64,000 nt of DNA from the IMG/VR virus record IMGVR_UViG_3300032305_002766, positions 15,366 to 79,365 of that record; one strand, given 5' to 3'. The notes under the pieces were generated by a model. That model worked only from the letters and a program-made list of their open reading frames with translations. It did no database searches and was not told the DNA's origin. Within the stretch, counting starts at the first letter, position 1. Each line of letters opens with the position of its first letter. Shown here in pieces: positions 4,948-39,842 of the stretch. The stretch is from a virus (lineage: Duplodnaviria > Caudoviricetes). Both the position numbers and the translations under genes were made by a program.

Positions 4948-6714
4948 TTAGATGGTATTCAATCCACTGATATAAATTTTTCCATAAAACTCAGGGCGCA
5001 ACATTTTCTTAGCGTAACGAGTCAAGAGACCTTTACGTGGTGTAAATGTTTCTGGATCGTACACTAATGGTGTCATGATTAATGGAATGTATGGAGAGAA
5101 TACAGCTCCTGTTTCAAGGAATTGTGAACCTCTATAACCCATTAAGATCAAGTTTTCAGTCATGTAAGGGTTTTTGTAAACTTTGTAACGACCGTTAACT
5201 GAACCTACTTTTTGTACACCGAAAGCATATTCCATTTGATCAGCTTCACCGTTGCTTGTAGAAGCAAATCCTGGGATTGACTCAAGGATAGTTGCTACTG
5301 TAGGAGAAGTTACTAAGAAATTAGCACCTCCACGAAGAGTTAACTGGTGGATTCTGTTGCTTAATTTTTGGATCTTAGTACCTAATGTTTGGAACCATTG
5401 ACCTTGTGTATTGTAGAATGCTTGAGTAGTTGTAGCAGCCGAAAATGTATTTGAAGATGGTTGGAAAACTGTGTTATTAATAGCTGACCAATATTCAGTA
5501 CCTGCAGCAGCATCTTCAATCAACATATCTAAGATTTCCAAATCAATTTCCATTGAAATGTACTCAGACATGATGTTTGTTAATTCAGCTTCAGCATCGA
5601 TGTTTTGGTAAGCAGCTAAATCTTGTGCAAACTCAGGAGTCCATACAGCTTTCAATTTCTTGGTTTTAGCTGTAATTGGTTGTGATTGCATTTTAACGTT
5701 AATCTCAGGGATAACGATTTGTTGAGTTGAAGCGTTATTTGGTACTGAGAAAGAACCTGAAGCTTCGAAATCACCACGACCTGAGAATAAACCTGAACCA
5801 CCGTTGTTACCTGAAGTTACGTTAATACCATCTTGTGAAGTTGATTTTTGGTATAATACAGTAATTCTAGATCCTGATTGAGGAATTGCAGCAAAGTTTG
5901 AAGATCCTGTAAAGAAGAAGCTAATTGTACTGTTAGTATAGTTGTACGTAGTAAATGCAGGTAGCAATGTAGTTGCTGTAAAGTTTGAACCTGAAGTTAA
6001 TACAAAACCTCTAACTGCATCCTGATCAAATGATGGGATAGTAGAGTTAGAAGAAGTGATCGTAAATTTGTAAACTTGACCTGAAGCAACAGATGCTGAG
6101 AAGGTAGAGTCAAAGTTTAACTCAGCCCAAGAAGCAGATATGATTGAACCTGTACCAGCAGCAGTAGTAGTTAAAGCATTTGTTAATGAAGCTGACATCT
6201 CTAACAATGAAGAAGAGAATTGGTTGGTTGAATACGTAAAGCGTCCTGTTCCGTAAAGACCACCTGTAGTATCTAAAGTTTCAAATGGGAACTGAGAAGC
6301 AGTATCTCTAGTACCATAAAGTGATTGACCTGCAGTAAATGGATTCTTAGTGTTACCATATTGGAAATCTAAGAAGAACACTAGACCTGAAGGCATGTTC
6401 ATTGGTTGAACTGAAACGAATTCTTTAGCTACGATAGTACCGAATACTTTACGTACTAAAGGAAGAGCGATACCAGCCCAGTTCTCACCTTGTCCACCTG
6501 AAGTGTAATATGAGTTAGAAGCGATTTCATTTGATTCAGTTACTAATTGTTTTGCTTGGTTTTCTAACAAAAGTGACATATTGTTTTTGTCCATTTCTGT
6601 TAGTCCTTCCAACAAACCAGTTCTAGCCCATTTTCCGGCTAATTTGGCAGCATCACTTTGAAGTGATTTCCAAGATCCTGCTGCACTTTCTAAAAGTTGT
6701 TGTACTTGTGACAT
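4948..6714 (-). CDS. gp23: Major capsid protein, T4 gp23-like, with a large Ser/Thr/Gly-rich insertion
   Basis: LVRKVFGTIVAKEFVSVQPMNMPSGLVFFLDF, AKTKKLKAVWTPEFAQDLAAYQNIDAEAELTNIMSEYISMEIDLEIL, YSPYIPL-like FSPYIPL and F.PRKGLLTRY motifs. Confidence 0.95.
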   Translation of the reverse strand: MSQVQQLLESAAGSWKSLQSDAAKLAGKWARTGLLEGLTEMDKNNMSLLLENQAKQLVTESNEIASNSYYTSGGQGENWAGIALPLVRKVFGTIVAKEFVSVQPMNMPSGLVFFLDFQYGNTKNPFTAGQSLYGTRDTASQFPFETLDTTGGLYGTGRFTYSTNQFSSSLLEMSASLTNALTTTAAGTGSIISASWAELNFDSTFSASVASGQVYKFTITSSNSTIPSFDQDAVRGFVLTSGSNFTATTLLPAFTTYNYTNSTISFFFTGSSNFAAIPQSGSRITVLYQKSTSQDGINVTSGNNGGSGLFSGRGDFEASGSFSVPNNASTQQIVIPEINVKMQSQPITAKTKKLKAVWTPEFAQDLAAYQNIDAEAELTNIMSEYISMEIDLEILDMLIEDAAAGTEYWSAINNTVFQPSSNTFSAATTTQAFYNTQGQWFQTLGTKIQKLSNRIHQLTLRGGANFLVTSPTVATILESIPGFASTSNGEADQMEYAFGVQKVGSVNGRYKVYKNPYMTENLILMGYRGSQFLETGAVFSPYIPLIMTPLVYDPETFTPRKGLLTRYAKKMLRPEFYGKIYISGLNTI

Positions 6715-6747: not shown

Positions 6748-8031
6748 TTACTTAATACCGGCTAACACTTGCCATCTAGCAAATTGGTTATCCACTTCAA
6801 GAATTGGTTTCTTAGGAGCAATACCTGCTACTTTAGAAGCACCACCAATCATTGATTCATTAATGTTAGATCTTTTTTCTTTCAATCCTTCAGATAATGT
6901 TTCAAATACTAATTTTGCTTCTTTTGGAGTAGAAGTTTTGTCAAAAGCTTCCAATACTTTTACTTTTTGAGCTTCAGTTAAGTTTTTAGCTCTAAAGATT
7001 TTATTAACGTAAAGAAGTTTAGCGTTTAATAAGTTAATTTCATTTAACTCAGAACGAAGAGTAGTAATAGTTTTAAGAGCTTCATTTAATTCAGCTTTCA
7101 TCTTTTTAGCTTCAGCAAATCCAGTATTTACATTTCCATCACTTTTAAGATTAGTTGGGGTAGCTTTACCACCTACAAGAGCTGCTTTAAGTTGTTTTGT
7201 CATAGTACCAGCCTGATTTGCATCATAATAGTCAGCTAAATACTTATAGATTTTATTAACTTCACCGCTAAGTTTTTGTTTCAAATTTTCATCTGTAAAT
7301 TTACCAGCGTTAATTTGAGCCATAGCTGCCTTAACATCCGCATCTGACATTTTTAGTGTATCTTTTAAATACTTGTCAATTGATGCACCCTTAAGAGCAC
7401 TTCCGATTTTTGAAAAAATTCCTTCTTTCATCATTTCGTCTTCATCTTCGAATTCAACTTCTTCTTCTTCTTCATTTTCACCTTCATGACCTGCTTCTAG
7501 TTCCCCAGAAGCTACCATATTAGCGATTACGTCTTCGATAAATTTTCTAAGATCGTCTTCTGACATGTTTTCGATATCAACTTCTGCATCCTCGTCGTCT
7601 TCAATACCATCGGCATCTTCATCTTCATAGTCTTCGTCTTCGTTGACGTTACCATGAGCTGTGGCTCCTTTAGGATCATTAATTAATTCATCTCCTTCCA
7701 TGATAGATTCTTCTTCTTCTAATCCATCTAATTCTCTTAGAAGTTCTTCAAGATCGATTTCGTCCATAGTTTCATCCTCTTCCATCATGTCGTCTTCCTC
7801 CATCATGTCATCAGCTTCTTCCATCATTTCATCTTCTTGCATTCCTTCTACTTCTTCTAGCTCTTCATTTTCTTCCATTTCATCCATTTCAGCTATCTTT
7901 GCAGCTAACTTTTCACGAATTAAAGGTCCGAAATTTTCTTCAAGAGCAGCTTTTGCGTTTGCTATTGCAGTTTCTTTAACAGCTTTAGCATCAGCAATTG
8001 CTTCTTTAAGCAAGTCTCTGTTACTTTTCAT
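6748..8031 (-). CDS. Prohead scaffolding/core protein (gp22-like), highly acidic
   Basis: Directly upstream of MCP; Glu/Asp/Met-rich middle; C-terminal coiled coil LNEINLLNAKLLYVNKIF; many LxE/MxE motifs. Confidence 0.8.
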   Translation of the reverse strand: MKSNRDLLKEAIADAKAVKETAIANAKAALEENFGPLIREKLAAKIAEMDEMEENEELEEVEGMQEDEMMEEADDMMEEDDMMEEDETMDEIDLEELLRELDGLEEEESIMEGDELINDPKGATAHGNVNEDEDYEDEDADGIEDDEDAEVDIENMSEDDLRKFIEDVIANMVASGELEAGHEGENEEEEEVEFEDEDEMMKEGIFSKIGSALKGASIDKYLKDTLKMSDADVKAAMAQINAGKFTDENLKQKLSGEVNKIYKYLADYYDANQAGTMTKQLKAALVGGKATPTNLKSDGNVNTGFAEAKKMKAELNEALKTITTLRSELNEINLLNAKLLYVNKIFRAKNLTEAQKVKVLEAFDKTSTPKEAKLVFETLSEGLKEKRSNINESMIGGASKVAGIAPKKPILEVDNQFARWQVLAGIK

Positions 8032-8226: not shown

Positions 8227-9384
8227 TTAACGTTCCATTTCTTGTGCTTGAGTTATATACCAACCTAATGCACGTTGTAATATTCTTTTTTGGCGAGGAT
8301 TAATACGAGAATCTGATTCTAAGGATGATTTTAATTCTGTATGGTCTTGGATTTCTTCGTTGCCAAAAATATCAATCTTTTGAATATATTCTTTATATAA
8401 TGTTTTAGTTTCATCATCCATGTTATCCATGAATGAAGCTTCTTTTAATTTAGTTTTTTTTTTTACTTCGTTAGTTTTTTCAGCACCTAACATTTTAGCT
8501 ATAGCAATTAATGCTCCTGCTACTCCTGCTGTAATAGCTAATCCACCACCAAATCCAGTACCTGTTACTTTACCTACAATTAAAGGAATAAGTGGAATGA
8601 TCATTGATTTCATTAATCCACCACCTACATCACTTAATGCACCTGCTATTTGTTGTTTAATATCTCCTTCAGCTTCAAATAAAGATTCATCAATTTTAGT
8701 AATTACATCTTTAACTTCTGAATTTGCTGTAATGCCTTTTTTAGCTAATAATGATTTTAATTGGGCTTTTTGTTCATCTGTGAGTTTATCAAGAGCTGTT
8801 TCGATTGCAGGGTTTGCTTCAACTGCAGATTCAACTTTATCACCTACAGCAGCTGCTTCTTCGGCTTCATTTAGGTATTTTTTTCCAAAGAAATAATCAA
8901 TTGGATCTTTAACATCTCCTATTATTCCTAAACTTATAACACCTCCTATAGATTCATTTAAAGGTTTAGAAATTTTTTCTAATTTTGCTTTATATTCACT
9001 TTCAGTAAGAATACCTGCTCTTTTTTGTAATTTAAGTTGTTCTTTTGTCATTTCGTTTTGTTTAAACATGTTTTGTTCTCTAAGAAATCCACCCCCACTT
9101 CTTCTAACTGTGGTTTGGTTTGAAGCTCCAAATTGTCTATTTGGACTAGTATTTACAGTTCCTCTGGCAGCATCTGCTTTTTCCATATAATCTTTTAATT
9201 CACTAGCAAAACCTTTTAAAGGTTCATGTGTATCAAGTAAAGATTTTAAACTTTCTTTTCCTTCACTGTTAGCCCAAAAATAGGCTGATTGGAATTCATC
9301 TTTAAGGTTTTCATCTTTTAAATTAGAATATCGAGAAAGAAACTTTTCAGCATTCATATCAGATATTTCATTCAATTTACTCAT
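8227..9384 (-). CDS. Hypothetical head-associated protein with a hydrophobic Gly-rich segment
   Basis: 385 aa between protease and scaffold; repeated LNE/LRE/LTE/LFE/LKE motifs; hydrophobic stretch GGGLMKSMIIPLIPLIVG...LAITAGVAGALIAIAKMLG. Confidence 0.6.
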   Translation of the reverse strand: MSKLNEISDMNAEKFLSRYSNLKDENLKDEFQSAYFWANSEGKESLKSLLDTHEPLKGFASELKDYMEKADAARGTVNTSPNRQFGASNQTTVRRSGGGFLREQNMFKQNEMTKEQLKLQKRAGILTESEYKAKLEKISKPLNESIGGVISLGIIGDVKDPIDYFFGKKYLNEAEEAAAVGDKVESAVEANPAIETALDKLTDEQKAQLKSLLAKKGITANSEVKDVITKIDESLFEAEGDIKQQIAGALSDVGGGLMKSMIIPLIPLIVGKVTGTGFGGGLAITAGVAGALIAIAKMLGAEKTNEVKKKTKLKEASFMDNMDDETKTLYKEYIQKIDIFGNEEIQDHTELKSSLESDSRINPRQKRILQRALGWYITQAQEMER

Positions 9385-9395: not shown

Positions 9396-10004
9396 TTAAA
9401 ATATAGGACAAGTGCCATTAGCACATAATATGTCAGTTAATAATGAGTTTACTTTTGAATATGGGTTTTTATTTACTTTATTTTCTTTACCTTCTTTAAC
9501 CAAATGCATGTATGAACCTGGGTTAGAAGGGGTTGATACAAAATCCCAACATAATAATTCAAAATCATCTTGTACCTCTAATGTTTCACCAATTTGTTTT
9601 AATGAACCCATTCCACGAGATGATACACCTACTGTAACATTATTTTCAATAAGTGCTTTTAAAATATTACCGGATACTGTAGGGAGAATTTCTATTTTAC
9701 CTAATACTTTATCTCCATCCCACCAACAATCTCTAATGATGTGAGATACATTTTTAAGATTAATAATAGAAGAATCAGGGTGATCTAATTCACCTGTTGC
9801 TCTATTTCCTCTAACAACATCTTGGTATTTGTTAATTTCTCGTTCCCATAATTCTTTAGGATAATATCTTCCATTTCCGTTTTTAACTTCAGCTGTGGCT
9901 AATATTCCTTCAACTAATGGGTTTCCGGAAGGTGCTTTCATACCTTCAGTTAGTTGAAGTGGAGATACTGAAAAGGGAATGGTTTCTATTAATACTTGTT
10001 TCAT
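9396..10004 (-). CDS. gp21: Prohead core protease, T4 gp21-like
   Basis: KNGNGRYYP, GELDHP, VSHII, GVSSRGMGSL, DFVSTPSNPGSY motifs. Confidence 0.95.
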   Translation of the reverse strand: MKQVLIETIPFSVSPLQLTEGMKAPSGNPLVEGILATAEVKNGNGRYYPKELWEREINKYQDVVRGNRATGELDHPDSSIINLKNVSHIIRDCWWDGDKVLGKIEILPTVSGNILKALIENNVTVGVSSRGMGSLKQIGETLEVQDDFELLCWDFVSTPSNPGSYMHLVKEGKENKVNKNPYSKVNSLLTDILCANGTCPIF

Positions 10005-17671: not shown

Positions 17672-17672
17672 A

Positions 17673-19295: not shown

Positions 19296-19322
19296 ATTTA
19301 TATTTTAACGTTTAAATATACG

Positions 19323-19360: not shown

Positions 19361-19405
19361 CCTAAAATTTTTTAAAAATCGACAGGCTATGAATCTGTCT
19401 GTATG

Positions 19406-22210: not shown

Positions 22211-22211
22211 A

Positions 22212-23324
22212 TTATCTAAGTACAATTTGGGGATTTGTATTATCCCATTTATATCCTAAAGTAGGTGCTTTAACTACAGTATCAATATACCCTGCATTTA
22301 CTACTTCAGAAAGTTTATCAACATCTATTAATACATAATCACCACTTGATGAATTAAGCATTAAAAAAGAATCTACGTTATTTTTAGAAGCATAAGAAGC
22401 AGCATTTAATTCTAGGATTTTTTTCTTCATATCCTCTAAATTTTGAAAATCTGCAGGACCATTAAAGAATTTACTAGCTAATCCTTGATTAAAATATATT
22501 TGATCAAGAATTTTTTGAATATATGAAATTACTTCTTCGGATTTATACCCGTTTTTAGTTGCTCTTTCATATATATCTTTTAAAGCATAGTTGATATTTC
22601 CATTGCTAGGTTCAGAAAGAAATTCTTCTAATTCTTCTCCATCTAAAAATTTATCTCCTATAATTTCTAAGTAATTAGTAGAACTACCTCTACCACCTTG
22701 TTGACCAAATCTACCACCTGTTCCTTTAACCTCAAGGTTTTTACCATTGAAATTTAAGTCACCACCACCGCTTCTATTATCAACATCTTTAAAAACTAAT
22801 GCTAAAAATACTTCGGCTTTACCGATAGAAGAACCACTTGCATCTAGGCCTGGTTCTATGTTAATAAGATCTTTTACTAGTTGGTCTGAGAGTCCAGTTA
22901 CTTGAGCTAGATTACCTTTATCACTTGCTCCTTCAAGGGATTTAGGTTTTTTAAGGTAATCTATAAGTTCTTTAGTTTCGGTATCTGTTAATTTATCTAA
23001 GATATATTCTAAAGACGATTCTTTTGTTTTAAAACTTTCAGGAGTATATCCTTTTTGATTTAAATATGATTTTAATTCACCTCTAGATCCCGAACCGGAA
23101 ATGCTTTTAAACAGCTTTTTAAGGGTTTCATCGGGGATATCGGATGATTTTATTAAATCGATGAGTTTATTTTTTAAATCTTCTTCTTCGGGGTTTTCAT
23201 CGGCCTCTAATATATTGTTAACCATTTCAAATAACATTTTTTTATCCTCAGGGCTACCCATATCAGGATATCCTTTAGGAAATTTATAAGCTACATTATT
23301 TATGATTCTATCAAAAACGTTCAT
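22212..23324 (-). CDS. Hypothetical protein with a possible PD-(D/E)XK nuclease motif
   Basis: SIGKAE...GGGDLNFNGKNLEVKGTGG; N-terminal segment ends ILE|AD. Confidence 0.5.
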   Translation of the reverse strand: MNVFDRIINNVAYKFPKGYPDMGSPEDKKMLFEMVNNILEADENPEEEDLKNKLIDLIKSSDIPDETLKKLFKSISGSGSRGELKSYLNQKGYTPESFKTKESSLEYILDKLTDTETKELIDYLKKPKSLEGASDKGNLAQVTGLSDQLVKDLINIEPGLDASGSSIGKAEVFLALVFKDVDNRSGGGDLNFNGKNLEVKGTGGRFGQQGGRGSSTNYLEIIGDKFLDGEELEEFLSEPSNGNINYALKDIYERATKNGYKSEEVISYIQKILDQIYFNQGLASKFFNGPADFQNLEDMKKKILELNAASYASKNNVDSFLMLNSSSGDYVLIDVDKLSEVVNAGYIDTVVKAPTLGYKWDNTNPQIVLR

Positions 23325-23803
23325 TATGCTGGGGTTTCTTCTGCTGGTGTTTCTTCTTCCTCTGGTGGGGTTGTTTCCTCACCTGCTGCTGCTTCTTCAC
23401 CTTCAACTTTTGGTTCTTCTTGAATACCATATGCTAATAATCGAGAGATAGCTTCGGCAGCGGATTGTTCTTCACCAAGATTTAATAAATAATATTTTTT
23501 ACCTTCTACTTGTGCAATCCAACTTCGTTCGGTATAAATTAACATAAAATTTTCCATATTGCCTAATACAATACGAAAAGTTGTTGGACGAGGAGCTACC
23601 CATTGTATATCAGTCATGAATACCTCATACTGATTTGTAAGTAGATCAATAATGACTTTTTTAAGTTGTGGAAATTTTCCTAATACAGGAAATTTATCGG
23701 CATCAAGAGATATTTCTTCTCCTTTATCAATATCAACTTGTTTTTCAGCATATGATTGCTTAACAATTGATTTAATTTTATCTCTTAATTCACTTTTATT
23801 CAT
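23324..23803 (-). CDS. Hypothetical protein with MNKSELRDKIK leader and acidic tail
   Basis: 159 aa; leader resembles the MKKSEL family. Confidence 0.65.
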   Translation of the reverse strand: MNKSELRDKIKSIVKQSYAEKQVDIDKGEEISLDADKFPVLGKFPQLKKVIIDLLTNQYEVFMTDIQWVAPRPTTFRIVLGNMENFMLIYTERSWIAQVEGKKYYLLNLGEEQSAAEAISRLLAYGIQEEPKVEGEEAAAGEETTPPEEEETPAEETPA

Positions 23804-23821
23804 TATTCAGACTTTAACTTT

Positions 23822-24658
23822 TTAGCTAATTTTTTCAGCAATTGATCCTGTTTTCTTTTTAGCTTGAGAAAATTTTTCAATACTAGCAATATCCATTATT
23901 CTACCATCTTCATGTTTAAAAAACTTTTCTTTAGTTTTTTTATCTATTTGGATGGGATAATCTTTTCCTTTATAAGTATAAGTATCTGTAGTTACTTCGT
24001 AATTAGTACTTATAGGATTTAGTGAAGATGTTGAGGTAGAAGTTTTAGTAGAAGTAAACCTACCTTTTTCATCTCTTGCAGGAGTTGATTTAGGTGTAGA
24101 TGTAGGTTGAGATGTTGGTTGAGATGTTGGTTGAGATGTTGGTTCTTCTTGGGCAAAAACTTTACCTGCTGCGATTGCTGTGTTGGCTTGGCTAGTTTGA
24201 TTTAATAATCTTTTATAAGCATCAATAGTTTGTTGAATTTCTTTAGGAGCTTTATTTAATGATGTTTGAGGAAATAATTTATTTATATCGTTTACTACAT
24301 CAGCAAGTTCTTTTTCTAAGGTTTTAGCTTTTTGTCCTAATTTAGCCATTCCTGCTTCTAATTTAGGATTTTTTAAATCTTTACCCATAAAAGATCTACC
24401 TATATTCCCTAATCCTGTTCCTACAAAAGCACCAGCACCTTTAGTTTGAGCTTTTAATCTATCTAAAAAACCCTCAGATACTTTATCAACTAATTCTTCT
24501 TCTTTTATATGTTTTTTTAATTTTTTAACATATTTTTCTCTACCTTTTTCTAAACTTTTAGTTAGTTTAGCAGGTTTGTCAGAAGGTTTAGATTGTGGGC
24601 GACCATATTTTTGTAAATTGGTAGCTAAAGCGTACTTTAATCCTTCTTTATCTTCGGC
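23822..24658 (-). CDS. -1-frame continuation of the 24637..25734 gene (includes the 23822..24388 ORF)
   Basis: The frame is open for 90 extra codons upstream of the ATG at 24388 with no ATG/GTG/TTG, reading AEDKEGLKYALATNLQKYGRP...HIKEEELVDKVSEGFLDRLK. It starts right at a 10-A run. Confidence 0.65.
   Translation of the reverse strand, partial: AEDKEGLKYALATNLQKYGRPQSKPSDKPAKLTKSLEKGREKYVKKLKKHIKEEELVDKVSEGFLDRLKAQTKGAGAFVGTGLGNIGRSFMGKDLKNPKLEAGMAKLGQKAKTLEKELADVVNDINKLFPQTSLNKAPKEIQQTIDAYKRLLNQTSQANTAIAAGKVFAQEEPTSQPTSQPTSQPTSTPKSTPARDEKGRFTSTKTSTSTSSLNPISTNYEVTTDTYTYKGKDYPIQIDKKTKEKFFKHEDGRIMDIASIEKFSQAKKKTGSIAEKIS
24099..24144. repeat. 12-bp tandem repeat (~4 copies) encoding QPTS
   Basis: GATGTTGGTTGA units on the plus strand; protein EEPTSQPTSQPTSQPTS. 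Confidence 0.9.
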
Positions 24659-25734
24659 TTTTTTTTTTCTTCCATCATTGATGGTTTACCTGTTATATCA
24701 TCGATAAAAGCATCTACTTTAGGTTCTGCTAATTCAAATTCTAAATAATGTTTAGCACTTGATATCATAGTTTTAGCAGTAGTAATTTTTGATTGCCACC
24801 AAGCTGGGAGATCAATTTCACCACCTCTTTCTTCTAATTCATCCATAATACTATAAAGCATCATAGAATATTTTCCTATTTTATATAGTTCTGATTTGAT
24901 ATGGTGTGGTTCATTATCTTCATGACCTAAGTCGATATCCTCTGTGTACATATCTTTTGGGAATTCAATACCTACAGAATAATTTTGAGGCATAAGATCA
25001 TCAAATTTACCTTCTAATCCTAAAGCTTTTAAAGCATCTTTAATATCTTTGTAAGTATAAGGTTCTTTTAAATTAATTTTAACACCTTGTTTTTGAAGTG
25101 ATCTTACTAAATCTTCGGGAGCTTGAAATTCTCTAATTTCACCTTTTGCTTTTTTAATGATGGATTTTTGCAAAGCATCAGGTAATTTTTTCTGTTTACC
25201 TTTTAATGCTGGGTTATTGTCGTATTCTTTAGAAAATGAAATGGCTTCTTTCATTTTAAGTTTATCGTCAGGAGCATATTGATTGTAAAGTGTTTTAGCA
25301 TCTTCACCGTATCCTAAATCAACCAATTGTTTTACTACACTACCAATTTTTTTATCATATAATGAACCTGCAAGGAATGATCTATTATCATCGGACATAT
25401 AGTAATACCAATCGAATCCTTTTAAAAGAGATTCTAATCTATTCATCAAGGCAGATGCTTGAGATAAGTCTTGCTCATCTTCATATCTATCGGCACCAAC
25501 TTCAACATCCATTTCTTGCATTAGAGATTTTCTAACTAATTCTTTGATACGAGTTTTATGAGTATTTTCTTCCATTTCTACTGCTTTTTTAGCTGCGTTT
25601 ATTGCTTTTCCAATAACAACCCTTTCAGCCTCTTTCCCATAAGTCTTAACAAGCTTACGCTTGTTTTTCTTAATCATGTTCCTTTTAATTTGAGCACTTT
25701 TATTAAGTACTTTAGGGGAAAGTTCGTTTTCCAT
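24637..25734 (-). CDS. Modular hypothetical protein (putative head cargo)
   Basis: 365 aa; modules bounded by LMQE, MKE, IRE, YTE, MMEE; ends in a slippery A run. Confidence 0.7.
   Translation of the reverse strand: MENELSPKVLNKSAQIKRNMIKKNKRKLVKTYGKEAERVVIGKAINAAKKAVEMEENTHKTRIKELVRKSLMQEMDVEVGADRYEDEQDLSQASALMNRLESLLKGFDWYYYMSDDNRSFLAGSLYDKKIGSVVKQLVDLGYGEDAKTLYNQYAPDDKLKMKEAISFSKEYDNNPALKGKQKKLPDALQKSIIKKAKGEIREFQAPEDLVRSLQKQGVKINLKEPYTYKDIKDALKALGLEGKFDDLMPQNYSVGIEFPKDMYTEDIDLGHEDNEPHHIKSELYKIGKYSMMLYSIMDELEERGGEIDLPAWWQSKITTAKTMISSAKHYLEFELAEPKVDAFIDDITGKPSMMEEKKKPKIKKD
24658..24668 (-). promoter_or_regulatory. Slippery site GAA AAA AAA AAG (A-AAA-AAG heptamer), candidate -1 frameshift
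   Basis: Ten consecutive A on the sense strand (T 24659..24668); a -1 slip joins the two open frames. Confidence 0.5.
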
Positions 25735-25904
25735 TATTTTTTATCTTCGGTGATTGATGCTTTTTTATATTCAGCAACCAATTTTTTAATTTCACCTAAT
25801 ACTTTACGAGCACGTCCGTGAGCTGCTTTTGAAGTTCCAGCATGTTCTGCTTTAAATGATTCGTAAAGTGCTTCAATTTTTTCAAAAATTTCTGTTGTAT
25901 TCAT
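25734..25904 (-). CDS. Histone H1-like (Hc1-type) small DNA-binding protein, below the ORF-track cutoff
   Basis: 56 aa MNTTEIFEKIEALYESFKAEHAGTSKAAHGRARKVLGEIKKLVAEYKKASITEDKK; the KAAxxRARK...KxS pattern recalls Bacteroidota Hc1-like proteins; TAATG stop-start overlap. Confidence 0.7.
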   Translation of the reverse strand: MNTTEIFEKIEALYESFKAEHAGTSKAAHGRARKVLGEIKKLVAEYKKASITEDKK

Positions 25905-25923
25905 AATTTTTATTATTTATAGA

Positions 25924-27390
25924 TTATTTATTTAATTTAGTCCACATTGGGAACGTAACTTCTTTAATTTTCATAGAAGATTCTTTTTCATCACCTTCAG
26001 CTAATCCTGGTTTTTCAACTACGTGGGTACGAGTAAAGAATGTAATTGTATTACCAATTTGATCCATTAATTTTTTATCACCTAATTGTTCAGCAGCTGC
26101 TTGAGCTTGTGTCAAAGCATCTTGTACTGATTTTACATTTGGATCAACTTCGGCGGTAGTCATTGTATCTGTTACTTCAACATCTTCTGTACCTTCAGGA
26201 GTTTCAATTTCTGCATCTGCTGTTTCAGTATCAGTTGCTTCAGCGTCTACTTCCTCATCTGCTTCATTTAAATTTCCTAATTTTTTAACAGCTTTTACTA
26301 AAAGATCATATGCTTGTTTAACTTCTTTAGAATCGTATAATTCTGCATGATATTCATCATATAAAAGAAGATCAAGTGCTTTAAGAAATGAAGCAATACG
26401 AGCTGGTTTTGCAGTTTCAAATTCATCTGCTTCGTTCATAAAATCATATAAACTATTTTCTTTTGATGGATTCTCAACATCAAGTTCAACTTCTGCTAAA
26501 ACCATTTCTTTGATTTTAGCTTTTAATTCTGATACTTTCATTTTCTTTTTTTCTATTTCTTCGCCTTTTTTAACACCAGCTCCGTATACATCTTCTTCGC
26601 CTTTGTTTTTAGCTACTTTGTTCTTTTTTCCTTTTGCTACTCGTTGAAATTCAGTGTCACCTTCTTCTAATGTTCTCATATTAGCATATACTTCTTGGGG
26701 TGTAACGGAGGCATTTATAATATTTCCCTCTGAATCGATGAAGTAACTTCCTCCCTCAGTTGAAAGGATTTCATCTCCTTTTATTATATCTAAATCAAAG
26801 GATGATGGTTCAACTGAACCTGGGGTTACGGTAAATTTTATATTTTCTTTGTCCGACATGTAGTCAGCAAATCTTTTAGCTACGTTAGCTGTTTCTTGTG
26901 TATTTAATGTAGGTTTTTCCATTTTTTCTTGTAGATATTCATCATCTCTATCTCCCGTGATATAATCATCATCATCTTCTTCACCAGCATACCATGATTG
27001 ATTAGGATCATTTGGTGCTTCTTCAGTAAAATCATGCATTTTCCAGTTAAAGTTAGGATTAGTAACTAATGCCGGATATAAAATTCCTTTTTTTCCTGAA
27101 AATGCTAAACTGATTCCTTCTGATCTATCTGGGTTAGCCATGCCATTCATTTGGGCTAATAATTCGTAATAATCTTTACCACCAAAATCACCATACCCTT
27201 CATAATTTTTTTCTAACCATTTATTACCTTTGTTGTCAAACATATAAACAGCACGAAGTGTGTTTTCAGGTTCAGAACCAATTTGTTGGTCTGTATCCTG
27301 GGTAAACCATGAAAATTGACCTTCGGTCAATGAGGAATGAAATGTTGCTTTATTTTCTAATATAGCTTTTCTAAGATCGAATTTTTTCAT
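25924..27390 (-). CDS. Modular acidic hypothetical protein (putative processed head cargo)
   Basis: 488 aa; segments separated by ILE, LTE, LQE, LEE, LAE, MNE, LNE, LAE. Confidence 0.7.
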   Translation of the reverse strand: MKKFDLRKAILENKATFHSSLTEGQFSWFTQDTDQQIGSEPENTLRAVYMFDNKGNKWLEKNYEGYGDFGGKDYYELLAQMNGMANPDRSEGISLAFSGKKGILYPALVTNPNFNWKMHDFTEEAPNDPNQSWYAGEEDDDDYITGDRDDEYLQEKMEKPTLNTQETANVAKRFADYMSDKENIKFTVTPGSVEPSSFDLDIIKGDEILSTEGGSYFIDSEGNIINASVTPQEVYANMRTLEEGDTEFQRVAKGKKNKVAKNKGEEDVYGAGVKKGEEIEKKKMKVSELKAKIKEMVLAEVELDVENPSKENSLYDFMNEADEFETAKPARIASFLKALDLLLYDEYHAELYDSKEVKQAYDLLVKAVKKLGNLNEADEEVDAEATDTETADAEIETPEGTEDVEVTDTMTTAEVDPNVKSVQDALTQAQAAAEQLGDKKLMDQIGNTITFFTRTHVVEKPGLAEGDEKESSMKIKEVTFPMWTKLNK

Positions 27391-27404
27391 TTTTGGGTAT
27401 ATGT

Positions 27405-27412
27405 TATAAATA
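27405..27412 (-). promoter_or_regulatory. Conserved upstream motif (sense TATTTATA)
   Basis: Exact copy 14 nt upstream of the start at 27390. Confidence 0.6.
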
Positions 27413-27414
27413 TG

Positions 27415-28638
27415 TTATTTTTTAAAATTACTTTTAAGTTTTCGTAATATAGTTTCAGCTAATGTATTTTCGTACCCTGAGTCATAATCATAATCATCAT
27501 CTTCACCAATATTCCAATCATCAATTTCAATATCTTGAGAATTTAAATCATAAAAGAAATCATAGATATCTGATGGAGTGTTTGAAGCATATAAAGTATC
27601 ATCGTATTTTTTAATATCAAAATTATCTCTATATTCGTCATATGTACCTATTGCTTTACGAGCATCTCTGTTTGATACTTTAACGAAATATTTTTCATCA
27701 ATTTCACCACCCATACCTTCTTTTATATTGGGGTTATCGCCTAACGCAAATTTTTCGTAATTTTGTAAATCGTTATAATATTTAATTTGATGTTTTTTAC
27801 CATCTGTATCAATACCATAAACTATTGCATCAAATTTACCCATTCCATCATCACGTTTACCTGAGAGGAATTGTCTTAGTGATGATTTAGCACGTGCCTT
27901 ATTAATGAAGGATAATTGTTCTTCTTTAATTTCTTCAGTAGCACCTACAATTTCTTCGTAATCATCCATTTGTAAGATACCTCTTTCTTTACCTAATTTA
28001 TTTGCTTTTTCAGTAACGTCATGTAAATCTAAATCTTGTTCAGCATCTTCTCTAGCATATTCCAACATACGAAGGAATAAAGGAATATCCATTGTAATTG
28101 TATCAACGGCATCTTCTTCTTTAGCTTCTAATAAGTTCTTTTTAAGATAAGAAGCGTCAATGTCAATTTCTAAACTAACATTTCCTTCTTTGGCTTTTTC
28201 GTTATGAGGTTTGATAACAAGTTTACCAACATTGTCTTTTACCTTCATTACTTTCCAATCTTCACCATCCTTAAATTTAAGGATATCACCAACTTTATAA
28301 TCAGAAATAGATTTAGATTCATATGCTGTTGTCATAGCTTCATTTATACCTTGGAAATTAGTTGTTCTAAGAGCTTGCATGATAGCATATACAGCATCTT
28401 GTTCTGAGTAATCATAGTGATTGGCAAGGGCTTTAATAAATCTATTTACTTTATTAATTACTTCTGGGTTTATACCTTCATTTAGGTTTGAAATTTCATC
28501 TCTAACCCATTCTTTTTCATTTGGACCTAATTGATCATAATCCATACCAAACTCTTCGTTTGCTATTTCATCATATATATCTCTTTCTTCTTTTAAAGGT
28601 TTAGAAAAGAATTCTTTAATTTTTTGTAAATCTTTCAT
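27415..28638 (-). CDS. Modular acidic hypothetical protein (putative processed head cargo)
   Basis: 407 aa; segments separated by LKE, LNE, INE, LLE, IKE, IKE, LAE. Confidence 0.7.
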   Translation of the reverse strand: MKDLQKIKEFFSKPLKEERDIYDEIANEEFGMDYDQLGPNEKEWVRDEISNLNEGINPEVINKVNRFIKALANHYDYSEQDAVYAIMQALRTTNFQGINEAMTTAYESKSISDYKVGDILKFKDGEDWKVMKVKDNVGKLVIKPHNEKAKEGNVSLEIDIDASYLKKNLLEAKEEDAVDTITMDIPLFLRMLEYAREDAEQDLDLHDVTEKANKLGKERGILQMDDYEEIVGATEEIKEEQLSFINKARAKSSLRQFLSGKRDDGMGKFDAIVYGIDTDGKKHQIKYYNDLQNYEKFALGDNPNIKEGMGGEIDEKYFVKVSNRDARKAIGTYDEYRDNFDIKKYDDTLYASNTPSDIYDFFYDLNSQDIEIDDWNIGEDDDYDYDSGYENTLAETILRKLKSNFKK

Positions 28639-29261
28639 TTGGTTGATTTTAAATAATCAGTTAGTAGTGAACCAATAGCCCCTACTTTCTGTCTTATAAA
28701 TATCCATTCTTCTCTGGATAATTTATGTTCTTTATCATTAAATGCTATTCCCATTACTCCTATAAAATGTTTATCTAAATCATCTATAGCAATCATGTAA
28801 AATGATTTAGTACCATAATCACGAGCAAAAATACTCAAATCATATGTTTCATCAGTGTTATAATTAACAACAGCTAATTCACCATCTTTATAAAGTTTAG
28901 ATAATGCTTTAGGGAATAAAGATACAGGGATTTGTTGAAAAATATGTTGGATAGTTCCAGTATTAGGAGTGATTTTTTCGTAAAAAAGAGAAAATTTCTG
29001 AATGGATTTCCCTGTAGGGAAAAAATGACCACCATTGTGGAATTGACCTATCCAAATACGATCACATTCTATTTCTTCCATAATCTGATCTAGTTGTTTA
29101 TCAACTAGTTCATTTAAGTCAATGGCTTCTTTTACTGGGGATAGTTTTTCAGTTTTAGATTGTTTTTCTAATTTATTTTTAAACCAAGTTATGATTAAAG
29201 GCCCTACTACAGTGGTAATAAGAGCAACAGCAATCGTTGTAATTGTTGCTAAAATTGTCAT
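28635..29261 (-). CDS. Membrane protein with a GAF-like soluble domain (T4 holin T-like architecture)
   Basis: Single N-terminal TM helix, then DRIWIGQFHNG...YMIAIDDLDKHFIGVMGIAF with GAF-type topology. Confidence 0.5.
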   Translation of the reverse strand: MTILATITTIAVALITTVVGPLIITWFKNKLEKQSKTEKLSPVKEAIDLNELVDKQLDQIMEEIECDRIWIGQFHNGGHFFPTGKSIQKFSLFYEKITPNTGTIQHIFQQIPVSLFPKALSKLYKDGELAVVNYNTDETYDLSIFARDYGTKSFYMIAIDDLDKHFIGVMGIAFNDKEHKLSREEWIFIRQKVGAIGSLLTDYLKSTK

Positions 29262-29830
29262 TCTTTTCTTTGTTTATGAAGATGTTCTAATGCTTCTTGT
29301 TTATATTTCAATAATTGATTTTTTCCAGAACCGCTCCAATTTTCTATATCACCCGCCTCCGTAACAAAGGTTTCGTTACTGTTGATTAATTCATCTACCC
29401 AAATTTCGAAATCTTTAGTAACACCATCTAAATGATCATTAATAACTTGTTTTTCTACTTGTTCTAATTTTCCTTGTTTTCTTAATTCGTGTTCACTATC
29501 TACCTGGCAATTAAAACAGTGGCTATACATTACATACCATTGTTTATCTAAATGAGGTTTTAATGATTTAGAACAAGAAGGGCAAAATAAAGGTAATACT
29601 ATACCTTCTTTTGCCTTATCTAATTTTGTAATATTTTGTTTTATACCATTTTTAATAGTCCATGATCGTCCGTCTTCTTCCCATACATCTCCTTCATCAT
29701 GGAATTCTTTTGCTTTTGTATAACCAGTTCCCATAGTAGTTTTTTCTCCATACTTACCTTGGACAAGATTACGGAGACGATTAACGTCACTATGTTTAAA
29801 CTCTTTTTTTAAAACTGAATCGTTTTTCAT
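29258..29830 (-). CDS. Hypothetical zinc-finger protein
   Basis: CPSC...CFNC motif. Confidence 0.65.
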   Translation of the reverse strand: MKNDSVLKKEFKHSDVNRLRNLVQGKYGEKTTMGTGYTKAKEFHDEGDVWEEDGRSWTIKNGIKQNITKLDKAKEGIVLPLFCPSCSKSLKPHLDKQWYVMYSHCFNCQVDSEHELRKQGKLEQVEKQVINDHLDGVTKDFEIWVDELINSNETFVTEAGDIENWSGSGKNQLLKYKQEALEHLHKQRKE

Positions 29831-30099
29831 TTGTTTGCTGCTGTTATTGGTTTCTGTAATTTAATTATTGCTTTCATTTTATATTTCCCAGCAATGTTTT
29901 TAATTTTTTTAGAAACCGTATCTGCCCCGGATCCATTTAAATCTACAACTAAAGTATCTTCTTTAATAGGTGATTTAATCACTCTATGTTCTAATTCACT
30001 ATAATTTGTTGTAAAAAAACTACTTAGAAAATAAGTACTAAGATCAACATTGGTTTTCTCTACTTCATTTCCGCTAATAACTACTCTTCTAAAGGCCAT
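29827..30099 (-). CDS. Hypothetical protein
   Basis: 90-aa ORF with a 4-nt overlap to the next gene. Confidence 0.55.
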   Translation of the reverse strand: MAFRRVVISGNEVEKTNVDLSTYFLSSFFTTNYSELEHRVIKSPIKEDTLVVDLNGSGADTVSKKIKNIAGKYKMKAIIKLQKPITAANK

Positions 30100-30126
30100 A
30101 TTTTATTGTTTTGATTAGGTGTAAAT

Positions 30127-33100
30127 TTAATGACCCTTTTTGGCTTTTCCAAGTTCTTCCAATGGTAATTTTGGAGAAGTGGTTTTAAAATCTCGTTTAC
30201 GCATAACAGTTTTAGCAACTAAATCCATTTCATCATTTTTAGCATCGTAATTTAATGCAAATGGTAAATTGATACTAGTACGTAAATCGTTTAATACGGC
30301 TTCAAAATTGTCAGGGAAATCAGATAATTTCTTTCCATATTTTTCGGCTGTTTTGATAAATAAATCTTCAAGTTCTTCAGCTGAGATAGGTTTTCCATTA
30401 CGTGGATCATTTACTCTTTCAAGAAAATGGTAAGTAAATTCTACATCAATGCCGTAATCCTCAAACCACTCATCTGCTATTTTTTCGATTTGATTTAAAT
30501 CGCTTCTAGTTATTTCTTCTTTTAATTCTTGAACTAATTCACGAGCATATTCTTTTAAACCAAATGGGTCTGATTTTGGGGTATTATTGTGCCAGCATTT
30601 ATGGCAAGTAAATAAATCGTTTCCTCCATCTTTTATAGCCCATTTCCAACCACATTTATCACATATAATATCAGTTGCAGTCATTAATTCTTTTACAGGA
30701 GCAAACCCTGAACCATAAGGTAAGGCTGTACCTGCTTGTGGGTCAGATGCTTCTTTCATTTTATTTAAACGTTGTGTCTTCTTTTTAGACATTTCTTTAC
30801 GTTTTTCAATATAATCTAAAGCACGTTTTAATCTTGATTTCACTTCAGGATCTTTTGCTTTACCATAAGCTGCTCTTACTCGTTGGTGAATTAAGTTAAT
30901 TACTTGAGATTGACGAGCGTGTGCTTTAGATTTAAATGATTTTTTATTTAAAGTATCAACGATATCTTCTTTGGTTTTAAATTTAACTCTAACTGTATCT
31001 GATGGATCTTCATCTGTGTATAATCTACGACCTGATCCTTTAGGTTTTTTACCTGTTCCTTTTTTAGGATCATTTTCTGGGATTATTAGTTCGTTTAGGT
31101 TTTCTATGTCTGTAGGGTATGATTTGGTTTTAGAATAAAATTCTATCATCCATGGTAATTGTTTCCATGAGTCTACTCCGTTAGGTGTTTCAGCATCAAA
31201 ATATTTACCTTCATATTCAACCCAAACATGTCCTAATGTATTATTTCTAGAATCTTCTGTACTCATTATTTTAGAGCCAGGTAAATATTTACTTAAATTT
31301 TTAGCAAAAATATCACAGAAACCATTATTACATTCTTTTCCTCCAAATTTATCCCAATTTTTATATGTTATTTTTAATGCATCTTTTTCTGTTTGGGATA
31401 ATGCTTTTTGATGTATATTCAATTCTGCTACTATAGCATTACCTGGGAAGTAGGTTATTATATTCTCGCCTTGTTGTTTAATTTTAGCATCAGGAAATAC
31501 TTTTAATATAAATGCTTTATATAAATTATCTCTTTGGTTACTAAAATCTTCTTCGCTTGATTTTTTAGAAGGGGAGTATAAAATTGCTTTAATATCTCCT
31601 CTATACTGTCTTAAATAATGTTTAATAATATTCGTTATTGTAGACATTACTCTATATAGTTCTCCTTTATTGACTACTATTTTTGAAGATGAACCCTCAG
31701 CACCTTTAGGTTTTGCTAAAAATTCAATATCCATAGCTTCCATAGACATATCCTCATCTTCAGGATCGTCAATTTCGATATGTGTTAAATCTACCTCATA
31801 TTTGGTTTCGGAAGGTGTGGTAAATTCTATAGAAGTAACTCGACCACTACTATCAACTTCTGTCCACTTATAAGGTTCAAGATTAGCTTCACCTACTTCA
31901 TTTATTGGGAAGAATTTATCTTTAAATTTAGAAGGATATGTTGAAAATTTACCTTTACTTAAAAAATTAGTTAGTGTACCTAATAATGTAGTTCCTGAAA
32001 TTCCTAAAATGGGAATAGCGCTCATTTTGAATATGTCTACAACATTACGATGTAACTTTTCTTTTTCTTCAGGAGTTAATTCTTGTTTTTTAATATATTT
32101 GGTAAATAATTCTTTAAATCCTTTAAAATCACCTGTTTGATCTTTATAAGCTGATTTGAAAGTGGAAATTAGGTTTTTAGTTTTATCTAAAATCCCTTCG
32201 TCTAATTTAGTTTTACTATCTGACCATTTTCTAAATTCAATATTACCATTTAGATAGGCTTCTTTTTCTATAGTTTCTAAATAATCGTCTTCATTTGTAT
32301 TAGTAGTATTAATATCACCATTACCTATTCTACCTTCAAGATTTTGTATATGATGGATCATTTCATGAGAAAATGAACGTACAATATCTTTTGGATGACG
32401 ACCATAAGTGTAAAGTACAATTAATTTATCATTAGGATTATAATATGCTGTTTTACCAAAAAAGTCTTCAGCATTCTTACTATCATCATGTATAAATTTT
32501 ACTTTAGGCAAAGGACGAATATTCATACCTTTATCTAACATGTATTTTGTTAGATCTTGTATTTTTTCTTTATAATCTGTGTTTATTAAATTTTCTTGTA
32601 AAGGTAAAGATAAAGCTTTAGCTCTTTGTTTCCATAAATCTAAAATATTATTTCTATCTTTTTTATTTAATCTTACTTTATCAAAATAATCATTAATTAC
32701 ATCTTTAAAAGGTGTTTTTGATTTTTTAGCTTTCAAGTACATACCTTGAAGCATAGCATCTACCTCTTTTTCTAATTTAAAGTATTCTGATTTAGGTAAA
32801 ACTTTTAAAGCAATTAAATTTCGTAAAATTTCATCATCTTCCATTTCTTTAGACGAAATTACATTAGACCCGGCTTGAGTTAAATGTTCAATTTCATGTC
32901 TAACAACATCTATTAGATCATTATATATGGTTTCCCATTTTTGAGGTAAATCTCTAGGATCTACTTGGAATTTAATTTCTAAATATGCTGGGGTTCTTAA
33001 TGGATCTGCTCCTCCATCTACTCTATAAACTTCTGTTTTTGTTTCTTTAACATTTAAAGTAGCATAAAGTTCAAAGTTAATAGATTGACCTTTAGAATTT

Positions 33101-33789
33101 TCGGATTCATAATCCTCATTATATTCTAAAAGTTCAGGAGTACCATCATATTGACTTTTCCAATCATTAATTATATCTTTAACAATCATTCTTGTTAATG
33201 AATCATAACGACCTTCATTGATGGTTTCTTTTCCTTCTAATAGATCCTTAAGTTTAATAATAACATTTTGAGGAGTATCTATTAAAATCCCAATCCCACC
33301 TGCTTGTTCAAAAGCTCTAATGTTTTCGGGTTTATCATCAATTAATACGGAATTTGGTGTAGCCCATAATGCTTTTTCTTTACCATTTTTGGACCAATTC
33401 ATTGGTAATGAACCTATATTTTTTGTAACCCATTCTGTTTTACCATCAATGGGAGCATCAAAAAATCTTCTACCAGTTAATTCTTTATTTGCTTTAGATA
33501 ATTCAGGAACAGCAGAAAGTATTTCAACTTTATTGAAATTATTTTTAGCAAAATCAACCATTTCTTTAGCTCCTGGAATGATAGGGGCATTAAGCCAATA
33601 ATCTAGATTTTCAACTGTATCTTGAGGTTTGATTTTTCTATCTTCACCAGTTTCAGGATCCTTAATAAACGTAGTTGCTAAATTTTGAGTGTAGTTTGAT
33701 AAAGTATCATCTACATCAAAATAAATAATATAGTCTCGATTATCTTCTTCTAAAAGATCCTCCAATAAGAATTTGGTAAGCAAATCCAT
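30127..33789 (-). CDS. Multi-domain polyvalent protein: HAD nucleotidase, two HExxH metallopeptidase-like modules, Cys-His-Asp hydrolase, Zn ribbon, RelE-like C-terminus
   Basis: FDVDDTL...LIDDK (HAD); HEIEH; HEMIH...E; NNGFC...GHVWV...YFDAE; CDKC...CHKC; HFLERVND...AKTVMRK. Each module is bounded by [LIVM]xE. Confidence 0.8.
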   Translation of the reverse strand: MDLLTKFLLEDLLEEDNRDYIIYFDVDDTLSNYTQNLATTFIKDPETGEDRKIKPQDTVENLDYWLNAPIIPGAKEMVDFAKNNFNKVEILSAVPELSKANKELTGRRFFDAPIDGKTEWVTKNIGSLPMNWSKNGKEKALWATPNSVLIDDKPENIRAFEQAGGIGILIDTPQNVIIKLKDLLEGKETINEGRYDSLTRMIVKDIINDWKSQYDGTPELLEYNEDYESENSKGQSINFELYATLNVKETKTEVYRVDGGADPLRTPAYLEIKFQVDPRDLPQKWETIYNDLIDVVRHEIEHLTQAGSNVISSKEMEDDEILRNLIALKVLPKSEYFKLEKEVDAMLQGMYLKAKKSKTPFKDVINDYFDKVRLNKKDRNNILDLWKQRAKALSLPLQENLINTDYKEKIQDLTKYMLDKGMNIRPLPKVKFIHDDSKNAEDFFGKTAYYNPNDKLIVLYTYGRHPKDIVRSFSHEMIHHIQNLEGRIGNGDINTTNTNEDDYLETIEKEAYLNGNIEFRKWSDSKTKLDEGILDKTKNLISTFKSAYKDQTGDFKGFKELFTKYIKKQELTPEEKEKLHRNVVDIFKMSAIPILGISGTTLLGTLTNFLSKGKFSTYPSKFKDKFFPINEVGEANLEPYKWTEVDSSGRVTSIEFTTPSETKYEVDLTHIEIDDPEDEDMSMEAMDIEFLAKPKGAEGSSSKIVVNKGELYRVMSTITNIIKHYLRQYRGDIKAILYSPSKKSSEEDFSNQRDNLYKAFILKVFPDAKIKQQGENIITYFPGNAIVAELNIHQKALSQTEKDALKITYKNWDKFGGKECNNGFCDIFAKNLSKYLPGSKIMSTEDSRNNTLGHVWVEYEGKYFDAETPNGVDSWKQLPWMIEFYSKTKSYPTDIENLNELIIPENDPKKGTGKKPKGSGRRLYTDEDPSDTVRVKFKTKEDIVDTLNKKSFKSKAHARQSQVINLIHQRVRAAYGKAKDPEVKSRLKRALDYIEKRKEMSKKKTQRLNKMKEASDPQAGTALPYGSGFAPVKELMTATDIICDKCGWKWAIKDGGNDLFTCHKCWHNNTPKSDPFGLKEYARELVQELKEEITRSDLNQIEKIADEWFEDYGIDVEFTYHFLERVNDPRNGKPISAEELEDLFIKTAEKYGKKLSDFPDNFEAVLNDLRTSINLPFALNYDAKNDEMDLVAKTVMRKRDFKTTSPKLPLEELGKAKKGH

Positions 33790-33791
33790 TA

Positions 33792-34157
33792 TTATTTAAG
33801 CTTTTGGATTTTTTCTTTTGCAGCTGCTTTCTTTTCTTCAATATCTTTTTTAGCACCACGGAAAGCTTCCATTGCCTCTTCCATTTCTTTAAGCTGCGAT
33901 TCATATTCCATGAAAGCTTCATTAGCATGACGATTAGCCTCAGAGCGGTTTTTATAAACACCTTTAGTTTCCTCCATTTTGATTTCGTCAAATACAGTAG
34001 CTTCGCAAACCATTCCTTCTTTAGTCATACCTTTACCAGGTTTTTTAACTACGAAAAATTTACCAATTTCATCTACTACAGTTGGACTATCCTCTTCTTT
34101 AATGGATTTTTTATCTTTTTTTTCTTCTACTTCTTTAAGTAAGTCTAATAATTTCAT
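33792..34157 (-). CDS. Hypothetical protein with MKLLDLLKE leader
   Basis: 121 aa; motif GATAAATA (plus strand, 34180..34187) upstream. Confidence 0.65.
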   Translation of the reverse strand: MKLLDLLKEVEEKKDKKSIKEEDSPTVVDEIGKFFVVKKPGKGMTKEGMVCEATVFDEIKMEETKGVYKNRSEANRHANEAFMEYESQLKEMEEAMEAFRGAKKDIEEKKAAAKEKIQKLK

Positions 34158-34339
34158 AATTATATAGTTTTGTTCGGATGATAAATACTTAATAATTTTG
34201 TTTCTTATCGTTTATTTTTACATTTTTTAATTAATTCATATAAATGATATAATAAATGCCACTCAATTTGAATGGCATTCTATAAAAATGTGATAAATAT
34301 TTATAAAAACGTTTTGTTTCAATTGTTTCCGCTATATTT

Positions 34340-39834: not shown

Positions 39835-39842
39835 TATAAATA
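39835..39842 (-). promoter_or_regulatory. Conserved upstream motif (sense TATTTATA)
   Basis: Exact copy 20 nt upstream of the start at 39814. Confidence 0.6.

Follow-up and report, generated by a model that had tools for sequence, protein, structure and literature searches.

Among described systems, the internal proteins of phage T4 (IPI, IPII, IPIII and Alt) come closest to the gene discussed here. They carry a short N-terminal leader ending in hydrophobic-x-Glu, their genome encodes a gp21-family protease, their genes are scattered outside the head module, and the cargo is diverse and fast-changing. The 10-residue capsid-targeting sequence of T4 suffices for encapsidation, with residues 4 and 7 used for targeting and residues 8 and 10 governing cutting by gp21 (PMC9026906). 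The gene that we compare with this system is an open reading frame (ORF) of 1220 amino acids (aa), P0001 in our protein set, which occupies 30127..33789 on the minus strand, stop codon included, of a 64,000-nucleotide stretch of DNA from a T4-like marine phage. This stretch, the window hereafter, is part of IMG/VR virus record IMGVR_UViG_3300032305_002766 (79 kb, about 49% complete, G+C 31%). The product is a polyprotein in which a motif of the kind cut by the phage's own head protease is present at every joint between modules. For that reason the chain is likely to be packaged and split into its modules, which would be delivered along with the DNA.

Three further systems invite comparison. 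The head proteases of T4-type and giant phages all cut after Glu (PMC5694885). In the giant phages phiKZ, 201phi2-1 and SPN3US, gp175/gp245 cut ejection proteins at A/S/G-x-E, and members of this homologous protease family process many proteins of the head interior, with cuts after Glu and in some of these proteins at several sites (PMC10052503, PMC5694885). These cuts mostly take long N-terminal propeptides off single proteins, with a small residue at -3 rather than L/I/V, and a module-cassette organisation is not reported for the ejection proteins. The polyvalent proteins (PMC5512222) unite many unrelated domains in one polypeptide, commonly with a zincin-like domain, and are predicted to be delivered with the DNA; the embedded metallopeptidase is proposed as their processor, and no fixed junction motif is described. 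The polyproteins of RNA viruses and retroviruses offer an analogy only: a single translation product is cut at short consensus sites, which yields the mature proteins in stoichiometric amounts. However, their protease lies inside the chain and the products serve replication and the capsid, whereas here the cutter is probably separate and the products would be accessory cargo.

The polyprotein family shares features with each of these systems and differs from all of them. T4 cargo consists of single modules with a leader each, whereas the polyprotein family has one leader, up to about ten modules and putative internal cut sites. Its modules are reshuffled combinatorially, it has no sequence homology to the T4 internal proteins, and it prefers Asn at -2. 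Like polyvalent proteins it combines disparate modules, nine of them in this phage polypeptide with others added in relatives, but unlike them it has a head-protease-type site at every joint, which persists in relatives without HExxH. The modules, named M1 to M9 from the N-terminus, are as follows (pI, isoelectric point).

33760..33789, minus strand: leader, candidate capsid-targeting sequence (aa 1-10, MDLLTKFLLE, then DLLEE)
33214..33759, minus strand: M1, HAD-type 5'(3')-deoxyribonucleotidase-like module (aa 11-192; ends INE192)
32593..33213, minus strand: M2, HEIEH module of unknown fold (aa 193-399; starts GRYDS, ends LQE399)
32197..32592, minus strand: M3, HEMIH minimal zincin-like module (aa 400-531; ends LDE531)
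31897..32196, minus strand: M4, basic helical module with a hydrophobic stretch (aa 532-631; pI 9.6; ends INE631)
31423..31896, minus strand: M5, DUF6934-like module (aa 632-789; starts VGEANL, ends VAE789)
31090..31422, minus strand: M6, Cys825-His854-Asp865 module (aa 790-900; ends LNE900)
30751..31089, minus strand: M7, basic module of pI 10.3 (aa 901-1013; ends MKE1013)
30688..30750, minus strand: 21-residue spacer peptide (aa 1014-1034; ends VKE1034; breakpoints at 1013 and 1032-1034)
30517..30687, minus strand: M8, CxxC...CxxC zinc ribbon plus helix (aa 1035-1091; ends LKE1091)
30130..30516, minus strand: M9, widespread module of unknown function (aa 1092-1212, plus an 8-residue tail after LEE1212)

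An initial annotation of the window had described this ORF, HExxH motifs at 298 (HEIEH) and 475 (HEMIH), the C825/H854/D865 triad and nine boundary tripeptides, and all of these are found at the residues given. The plus-strand reading of the same coordinates is full of stops and was rejected, which places the gene on the minus strand.

Hydrophobic-x-Glu sites have an ordinary overall frequency in the polyprotein and are far from randomly placed. The protein holds 14 [IL]xE sites, against 16.4±3.5 in shuffled sequences, and 27 [ILVM]xE sites against 27.3, so the expectation that such sites exceed what composition gives fails for the chain as a whole and holds at its boundaries. A homologue search over 5.8 billion proteins gave 2331 metagenomic relatives of 671-2135 aa, and module boundaries were set independently of the motif, from the BLAST breakpoints of the query against the best 119 homologues. 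Alignment ends cluster at about 190, 398, 524, 629, 790, 902, 1013, 1033 and 1089. All nine boundaries defined in this way have [ILVM]xE within 8 aa, and they coincide with the nine sites of the initial annotation. Within aa 21-1204, eight of the ten [IL]xE sites lie within 8 aa of a boundary, where 1.28 were expected (0/20000 simulations).

The relatives show the same segments in differing order and copy number when the query is compared with the 119 homologues, and an architecture census found at least 158 architectures among 283 proteins, with 52 different neighbour pairs. The prediction that homologues would shuffle their modules precisely at LxE joints is borne out: 133 of the 148 distinct homologue junctions carry [ILVM]xE, compared with 26.7±5.1 in random windows, and 78 carry [ILVM]NE, compared with 7.6. 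We obtained an independent second set, of greater diversity, by searching 1.84 billion representatives of 50%-identity clusters with a profile. Here the motif follows M3 in 124 of 125 proteins with more sequence downstream and precedes it in 124 of 126, against a background of 24%.

We also read the joints without reference to the motif, taking the conserved start of each of five unrelated modules as an anchor and reading the residues in front of it. Glu stands at -1 in 428 of 434 distinct contexts (179/179, 73/73, 39/45, 55/55 and 82/82 for the five modules, the second count being that of M5 and the fourth that of M8). L, I or V (or M) stands at -3 in 419 contexts and Asn at -2 in about half, while -4 and -5 are variable. 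Modules at the protein C-terminus end without Glu, e.g. ..WEDSIKNV*, ..LSLPKI* and ..KELGL*. Judged from these alignments, the joint Glu belongs to the joint and not to the module. The site before M2 is encoded by at least 18 different 9-mers; since site codons vary, the constraint acts on the protein and not on DNA, and a DNA-level recombination signal at the joints is ruled out by the same variation.

Structure prediction places the sites between domains. The AlphaFold model of aa 186-531 has a mean predicted local distance difference test score (pLDDT) of 75.8 and consists of two compact domains separated by a low-confidence junction; of the four blocks with the lowest confidence, three are the junctions at 186-192, 398-403 and 526-531. 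The other sites lie in the stretches 894-942, 1011-1034 and 1073-1091, all among the least confident of the aa 790-1220 model. A domain spanning a site had been named as an observation that would speak against the proposal; none was found among the predicted domains of these two models, the second of which is poor.

The proposed cutter is encoded in the T4-type head module of the window, which comprises a large terminase, a portal, a Peptidase_S77 protease and a Gp23-family capsid protein. The genes that matter here are listed below.

9396..10004, minus strand: prohead protease, proposed cutter (Pfam Peptidase_S77, PF03420, 1.3e-29, above the cut-off)
8227..9384, minus strand: second ORF between the protease and capsid genes (three [ILV]NE against 0.36 expected; top-ranked ORF of the window)
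6748..8031, minus strand: scaffold-position ORF, 427 aa, acidic (four [ILV]NE against 0.82 expected)
4948..6714: Gp23-family capsid protein (Pfam 6e-75)

The claim that the window encodes a gp21 homologue is well founded: besides the Pfam match, the protease matches the T4 gp21 structure 5jbl at 1.8e-15, with the catalytic His, Ser and Asp in place. An S77 protease occurs in nine of ten related virus records, among them all three with a completeness of 90% or more. The protease has LIE7 at its own N-terminus, where T4 gp21 has LIE-9, and LLE51 and VTE60 of the capsid protein lie near the position at which T4 gp23 is cut. A ranking of the window's minus-strand ORFs by [ILV]NE content is headed by the two located between the protease and capsid genes. 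Orthologues of the scaffold-position gene in four other genomes contain 4, 4, 4 and 5 such sites, against 0.6-0.8 expected, at differing positions, and in five genomes this gene is the most [ILV]NE-rich ORF; the capsid protein has none. Of 240 relatives, 85 lack HExxH yet retain leaders and joints, for example P0036 (903 aa, full leader). The enrichment in scaffold-position ORFs, the joints of the HExxH-less relatives and the presence of S77 in nine of ten records together tie the joint motif to the head protease, in preference to the HExxH and Cys-His-Asp modules of the chain.

Two side observations concern the protease and its possible substrates. The ORF at 39863-44677 (minus strand, 1604 aa, no Pfam or PHROG match) has five [ILV]NE against 1.4 expected, the third highest in the window; its product may likewise be cut by the protease, or it may be a large component of the virion. 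The S77 match in one related virus record (G005:C1:50206-50733) has one in-frame TAG, which might reflect an error in sequencing, a broken gene or reassignment of the stop codon.

The N-terminus of the chain provides the second element of the argument. Internal proteins of the T4 type have a leader of 10-19 residues ending in hydrophobic-x-Glu and, in the same genome, a gp21-family (Peptidase_S77) protease with catalytic His, Ser and Asp; both are found here, the leader being MDLLTKFLLE with its Glu at position 10. Nearly all relatives keep a leader of the form M[ND]xLTKxLLE[DE]LL[DE], whether the first module is HAD or an NMNAT-like nucleotidyltransferase. Against the MKTYQEFIAE of T4 IPII and IPIII, residues F7, L8 and E10 match.

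Stand-alone copies of the modules also have leaders, of 10-17 residues, which end in the joint motif directly before the module. Those of M2 read MIKLIDILKE|GAYDS (217-aa forms) and MKDIQHIKEFFSKPINE|GRYDS, and those of M9 read MKTFKQFSEE|ITK and MKKFKEYISEE|ITK. The M9 relative gp42 of Paraglaciecola phage GD1 begins MKSFEQYIEE|Q, and nucleotidyltransferase fusions begin MKTYTEYLEE|A and MKTFKQLTE|A. The T4 starts read from NC_000866 are MKTYQEFIAE|A for ipII and ipIII and MKTFKEF.. for ipI, close to the leaders of the stand-alone M9 and nucleotidyltransferase relatives; some stand-alone leaders thus appear very like the T4 capsid-targeting sequence. Many ORFs of the block 16555-34157 have leader-like starts ending in [ILV]xE at residues 6-17, among them MKKSELKEYIRE, (V)KKSEFKALLKE, MKKFDLRKAILE, MKDLQKIKEFFSKPLKE and MKLLDLLKE. 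The MKD..KEFFSKP leader is found in other phages too, where it stands before M2. Such starts are found in 9 of the 21 ORFs of this block and in seven of eight head-core genes, compared with 6 of 40 ORFs elsewhere and a background of 18%.

From the sequence we consider it fairly likely that the gene encodes a leader-addressed capsid-cargo chain that is diced in the prohead by the S77 protease. The leader would take the whole chain into the prohead scaffolding core, as the T4 capsid-targeting sequence does for IPI-III. The gp21-type Peptidase_S77 protease, active only inside the prohead, would then cut after each junction Glu and yield products of about 6-24 kDa: the HAD nucleotidase, the two HExxH modules, the DUF6934 and Cys-His-Asp modules, a basic module, the zinc ribbon and M9. 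These pieces would remain in the capsid, pass into the host together with the DNA and act there early as enzymes. Of the three steps this one is the least certain, and we propose it tentatively.

Several points weigh against this proposal. The leader resembles the T4 sequence at few positions only, and relatives of the type found in Flavobacterium phage immuto start without it. The gene adjoins primase and exonuclease genes outside the head module. VAE789, MKE1013 and VKE1034 are looser than [IL]xE, and after M9 the joint is in many cases L-x-[LVF]-E, which puts the hydrophobic residues at -2 and -4. Confidence in the aa 790-1220 model is low (pLDDT 53), and the relatives share descent, so that the counts overstate independence. 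The zincin-like and Cys-His-Asp modules in the chain could themselves be cutting enzymes.

If modules of the chain do the cutting, the polyprotein would be a self-processing polyvalent protein, as predicted for polyvalent proteins by Iyer et al. 2017 (PMC5512222): the M3 zincin, perhaps M2, or the Cys-His-Asp module would act in cis or in trans, before packaging or after entry, as proposed for those polyvalent proteins that bear an MPTase. Several features of the modules speak for this. The predicted fold of M3 is that of a zincin, with middling scores (Wss1 Z 8.2, PprI Z 7.6, SPRTN Z 7.3), it is the most widespread of the modules (2739 cluster representatives), and its HExxH and downstream ExEA are invariant, as are C825, H854 and D865. 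However, relatives without any HExxH keep their joints, which argues against self-cutting, and so do the single stand-alone modules with the same leader-plus-Glu site and the concentration of the motif in scaffold-position ORFs that have neither zincin nor Cys-His-Asp domains. The gp21-type proteases follow a known rule, cleaving behind Glu where position -3 is hydrophobic, and no such rule is known for Wss1/IrrE-like zincins. We therefore regard self-processing as unlikely.

The chain might also never be cut, and work as a multidomain enzyme of nucleotide metabolism in which the tripeptide is a linker or domain-capping habit or a recombination scar. The adjoining primase and exonuclease genes, in synteny with phage immuto, and the ordinary overall frequency of the motif suit this explanation. 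We nevertheless find it quite improbable, because Glu at -1 is nearly invariant before five unrelated modules and missing from modules at the C-terminus, the site codons vary freely, the same site closes the short leaders of single-module proteins, and the modules have no shared pathway logic. A related and similarly improbable alternative accepts cutting by the head protease without a delivered payload, the pieces being core or scaffold helpers, DNA-condensing basic peptides or fragments that are expelled as the head matures. T4 scaffold fragments do leave the head (PMC9026906), M7 (pI 10.3) and M4 (pI 9.6) are basic like the T4 internal proteins, and the N-terminus of the scaffold protein (..DLLKE) resembles the leaders. 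But most modules look like enzymes, here a HAD nucleotidase and in relatives a nucleotidyltransferase, an Fe/Mn superoxide dismutase and a PAP2 phosphatase, and folded products of 12-24 kDa would be unlikely to pass capsid pores.

A literature search found no published description of this joint-and-leader cargo arrangement. If the cuts are real, phages have a general route for loading many enzymes into the capsid from one gene, as a payload with fixed ratios that is quickly swapped. With the rule of leader plus joints one could then predict, from sequence alone, which proteins thousands of uncultured phages inject, with nucleotidases, NMNAT-like transferases, superoxide dismutase and peptidases as candidate early-acting or anti-defence enzymes. 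Foreign proteins could be loaded into phage heads after this natural design, and the view that an embedded metallopeptidase processes polyvalent proteins would need revision. There is a somewhat better than even case for a wider statement, that T4-like phages of aquatic bacteria have a plug-in cargo system in which any module placed between [L/I/V]-x-Glu joints behind a capsid-targeting leader is packaged, released by the protease and delivered. Recombination at the joints would in that case produce payloads in hundreds of combinations, and the system would be the phage equivalent of polymorphic toxin cassettes.

The functional labels given to the modules by the initial annotation fared unevenly. 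The HAD nucleotidase label has support, though not from every profile: M1 matches phrog_2643 at 5e-21 over aa 16-187 and has a DVDDT motif of the DxDxT nucleophile type, but its Pfam NT5C score of 17.7 bits is under the cut-off of 24.8. The model of M3 appears to be a minimal zincin fold with middling scores, its best match (VIA-align) being Wss1 5xbn_A with a root-mean-square deviation of 3.0 over 102 aligned residues, and zincins make up nearly all of the top 50. M3 has no Pfam MPTase match, and Peptidase_M91 is reached only at E 0.067. A Foldseek search with the aa 186-531 model returned no match at E <= 0.001, the weak matches being zincins, and a profile search of the representative library with M3 found close relatives only and no bridge to a named family. 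M2 is modelled with pLDDT mostly 75-94 and keeps RHEIEH in aligned relatives. In a profile-to-profile comparison with M3 only the HExxH aligns, at a probability of 4.8%, so the two modules are not shown to be paralogues.

M4 has BLAST breakpoints at 522-524 and 629, and homologues of M5 have Pfam DUF6934 matches down to 2.2e-13. M6 had been called papain- or transglutaminase-like. Its Cys-His-Asp residues are indeed invariant in 28 distinct sequences with identity down to 42%, but the family match, to Pfam Phage_YunG-like PF24591, scores 17.3 bits under a cut-off of 27, with 13 relatives weakly matching. M7 is 85-95% identical across homologues and is modelled as a Lys/Gly-rich disordered head followed by a helical hairpin; a fold search with the poor aa 790-1220 model gave generic helical hairpins over M7 only. 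The spacer at aa 1014-1034 has the lowest pLDDT of that model, and the ribbon of M8 has 73-79. M9 matches phrog_14518 and phrog_23027 and has 867 shorter relatives. It had been labelled RelE-like and a possible RNase, for which we find no support: there is no match in Pfam, NCBIfam or PDB sequences, RelE/ParE included, and the model (pLDDT 55-69) is barely covered by the fold search. PDB sequence searches with two family profiles (A3 and A5) gave nothing useful, and ESM Atlas searches by features and by shape gave the family's own viral clusters only.

Relatives P0007, P0075/P0438, P0187, P0297 and P0421 have other modules plugged into the same type of chain. The extra modules seen in relatives include an Fe/Mn superoxide dismutase, a Pol-beta-type nucleotidyltransferase, a PAP2 phosphatase and a GNAT acetyltransferase, and PolyVal-type families appear as a weak ART-PolyVal match (5e-4) and as an ESM Atlas lead to LPD23 (0.88). 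Gene 182 of immuto (vB_FspM_immuto) has no annotation beyond NMN adenylyltransferase, yet contains at least four modules; cuts in its product are predicted after LAE286, VKE496, LPE565 and MAE702, and the NT5C gene next to it has a leader ..LLLEE. The hydrophobic segment of M4 has a likeness in the scaffold-position ORF 8227-9384 (minus strand), which has a long Gly/Ala/Ile-rich stretch (..MIIPLIPLIVGKVTGTGFGGGLAITAGVAGALIAIAKMLG..).

Upstream of the polyprotein gene lie genes for a DNA primase, an exonuclease and a 121-aa protein, in synteny with genes 179-184 of Flavobacterium phage immuto. The two features nearest to the gene are the following.

33792..34157, minus strand: 121-aa ORF directly upstream of the polyprotein (leader MKLLDLLKE; stop 2 nucleotides before the polyprotein start)
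34181..34187, minus strand: TATTTAT motif, 30 nucleotides upstream of the 121-aa ORF

The 121-aa ORF and the polyprotein are probably on the same transcript. Ten of the 33 minus-strand copies of TATTTAT lie 13-34 nucleotides upstream of start codons, a zone that makes up 5.7% of the window; besides the polyprotein operon they precede the portal gene and eight other genes. That the operon shares this motif with the portal gene suggests late expression. The TATTTAT(A) copies before ten start codons, including those of the portal and tail-region genes (e.g. 14262-14268, 12332-12338, 39836-39842 and 34181-34187), may be a candidate late-promoter element, the counterpart of T4 TATAAATA, a promoter role being inferred only. 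A scan for sigma-70 promoters and terminators gave results at or below chance.

A DNA primase gene lies within a few kb of M9-bearing or polyprotein genes in four distant T4-like phages, namely Melnitz-3, phiM12, immuto and the window phage. The leader-bearing block of the window also contains an AAA_28 (NadR-type kinase-like) protein at 17141-17671 on the minus strand (Pfam 4e-14). Together with the NMNAT-like nucleotidyltransferase that heads some polyprotein relatives, it hints at phage salvage of nicotinamide adenine dinucleotide (NAD).

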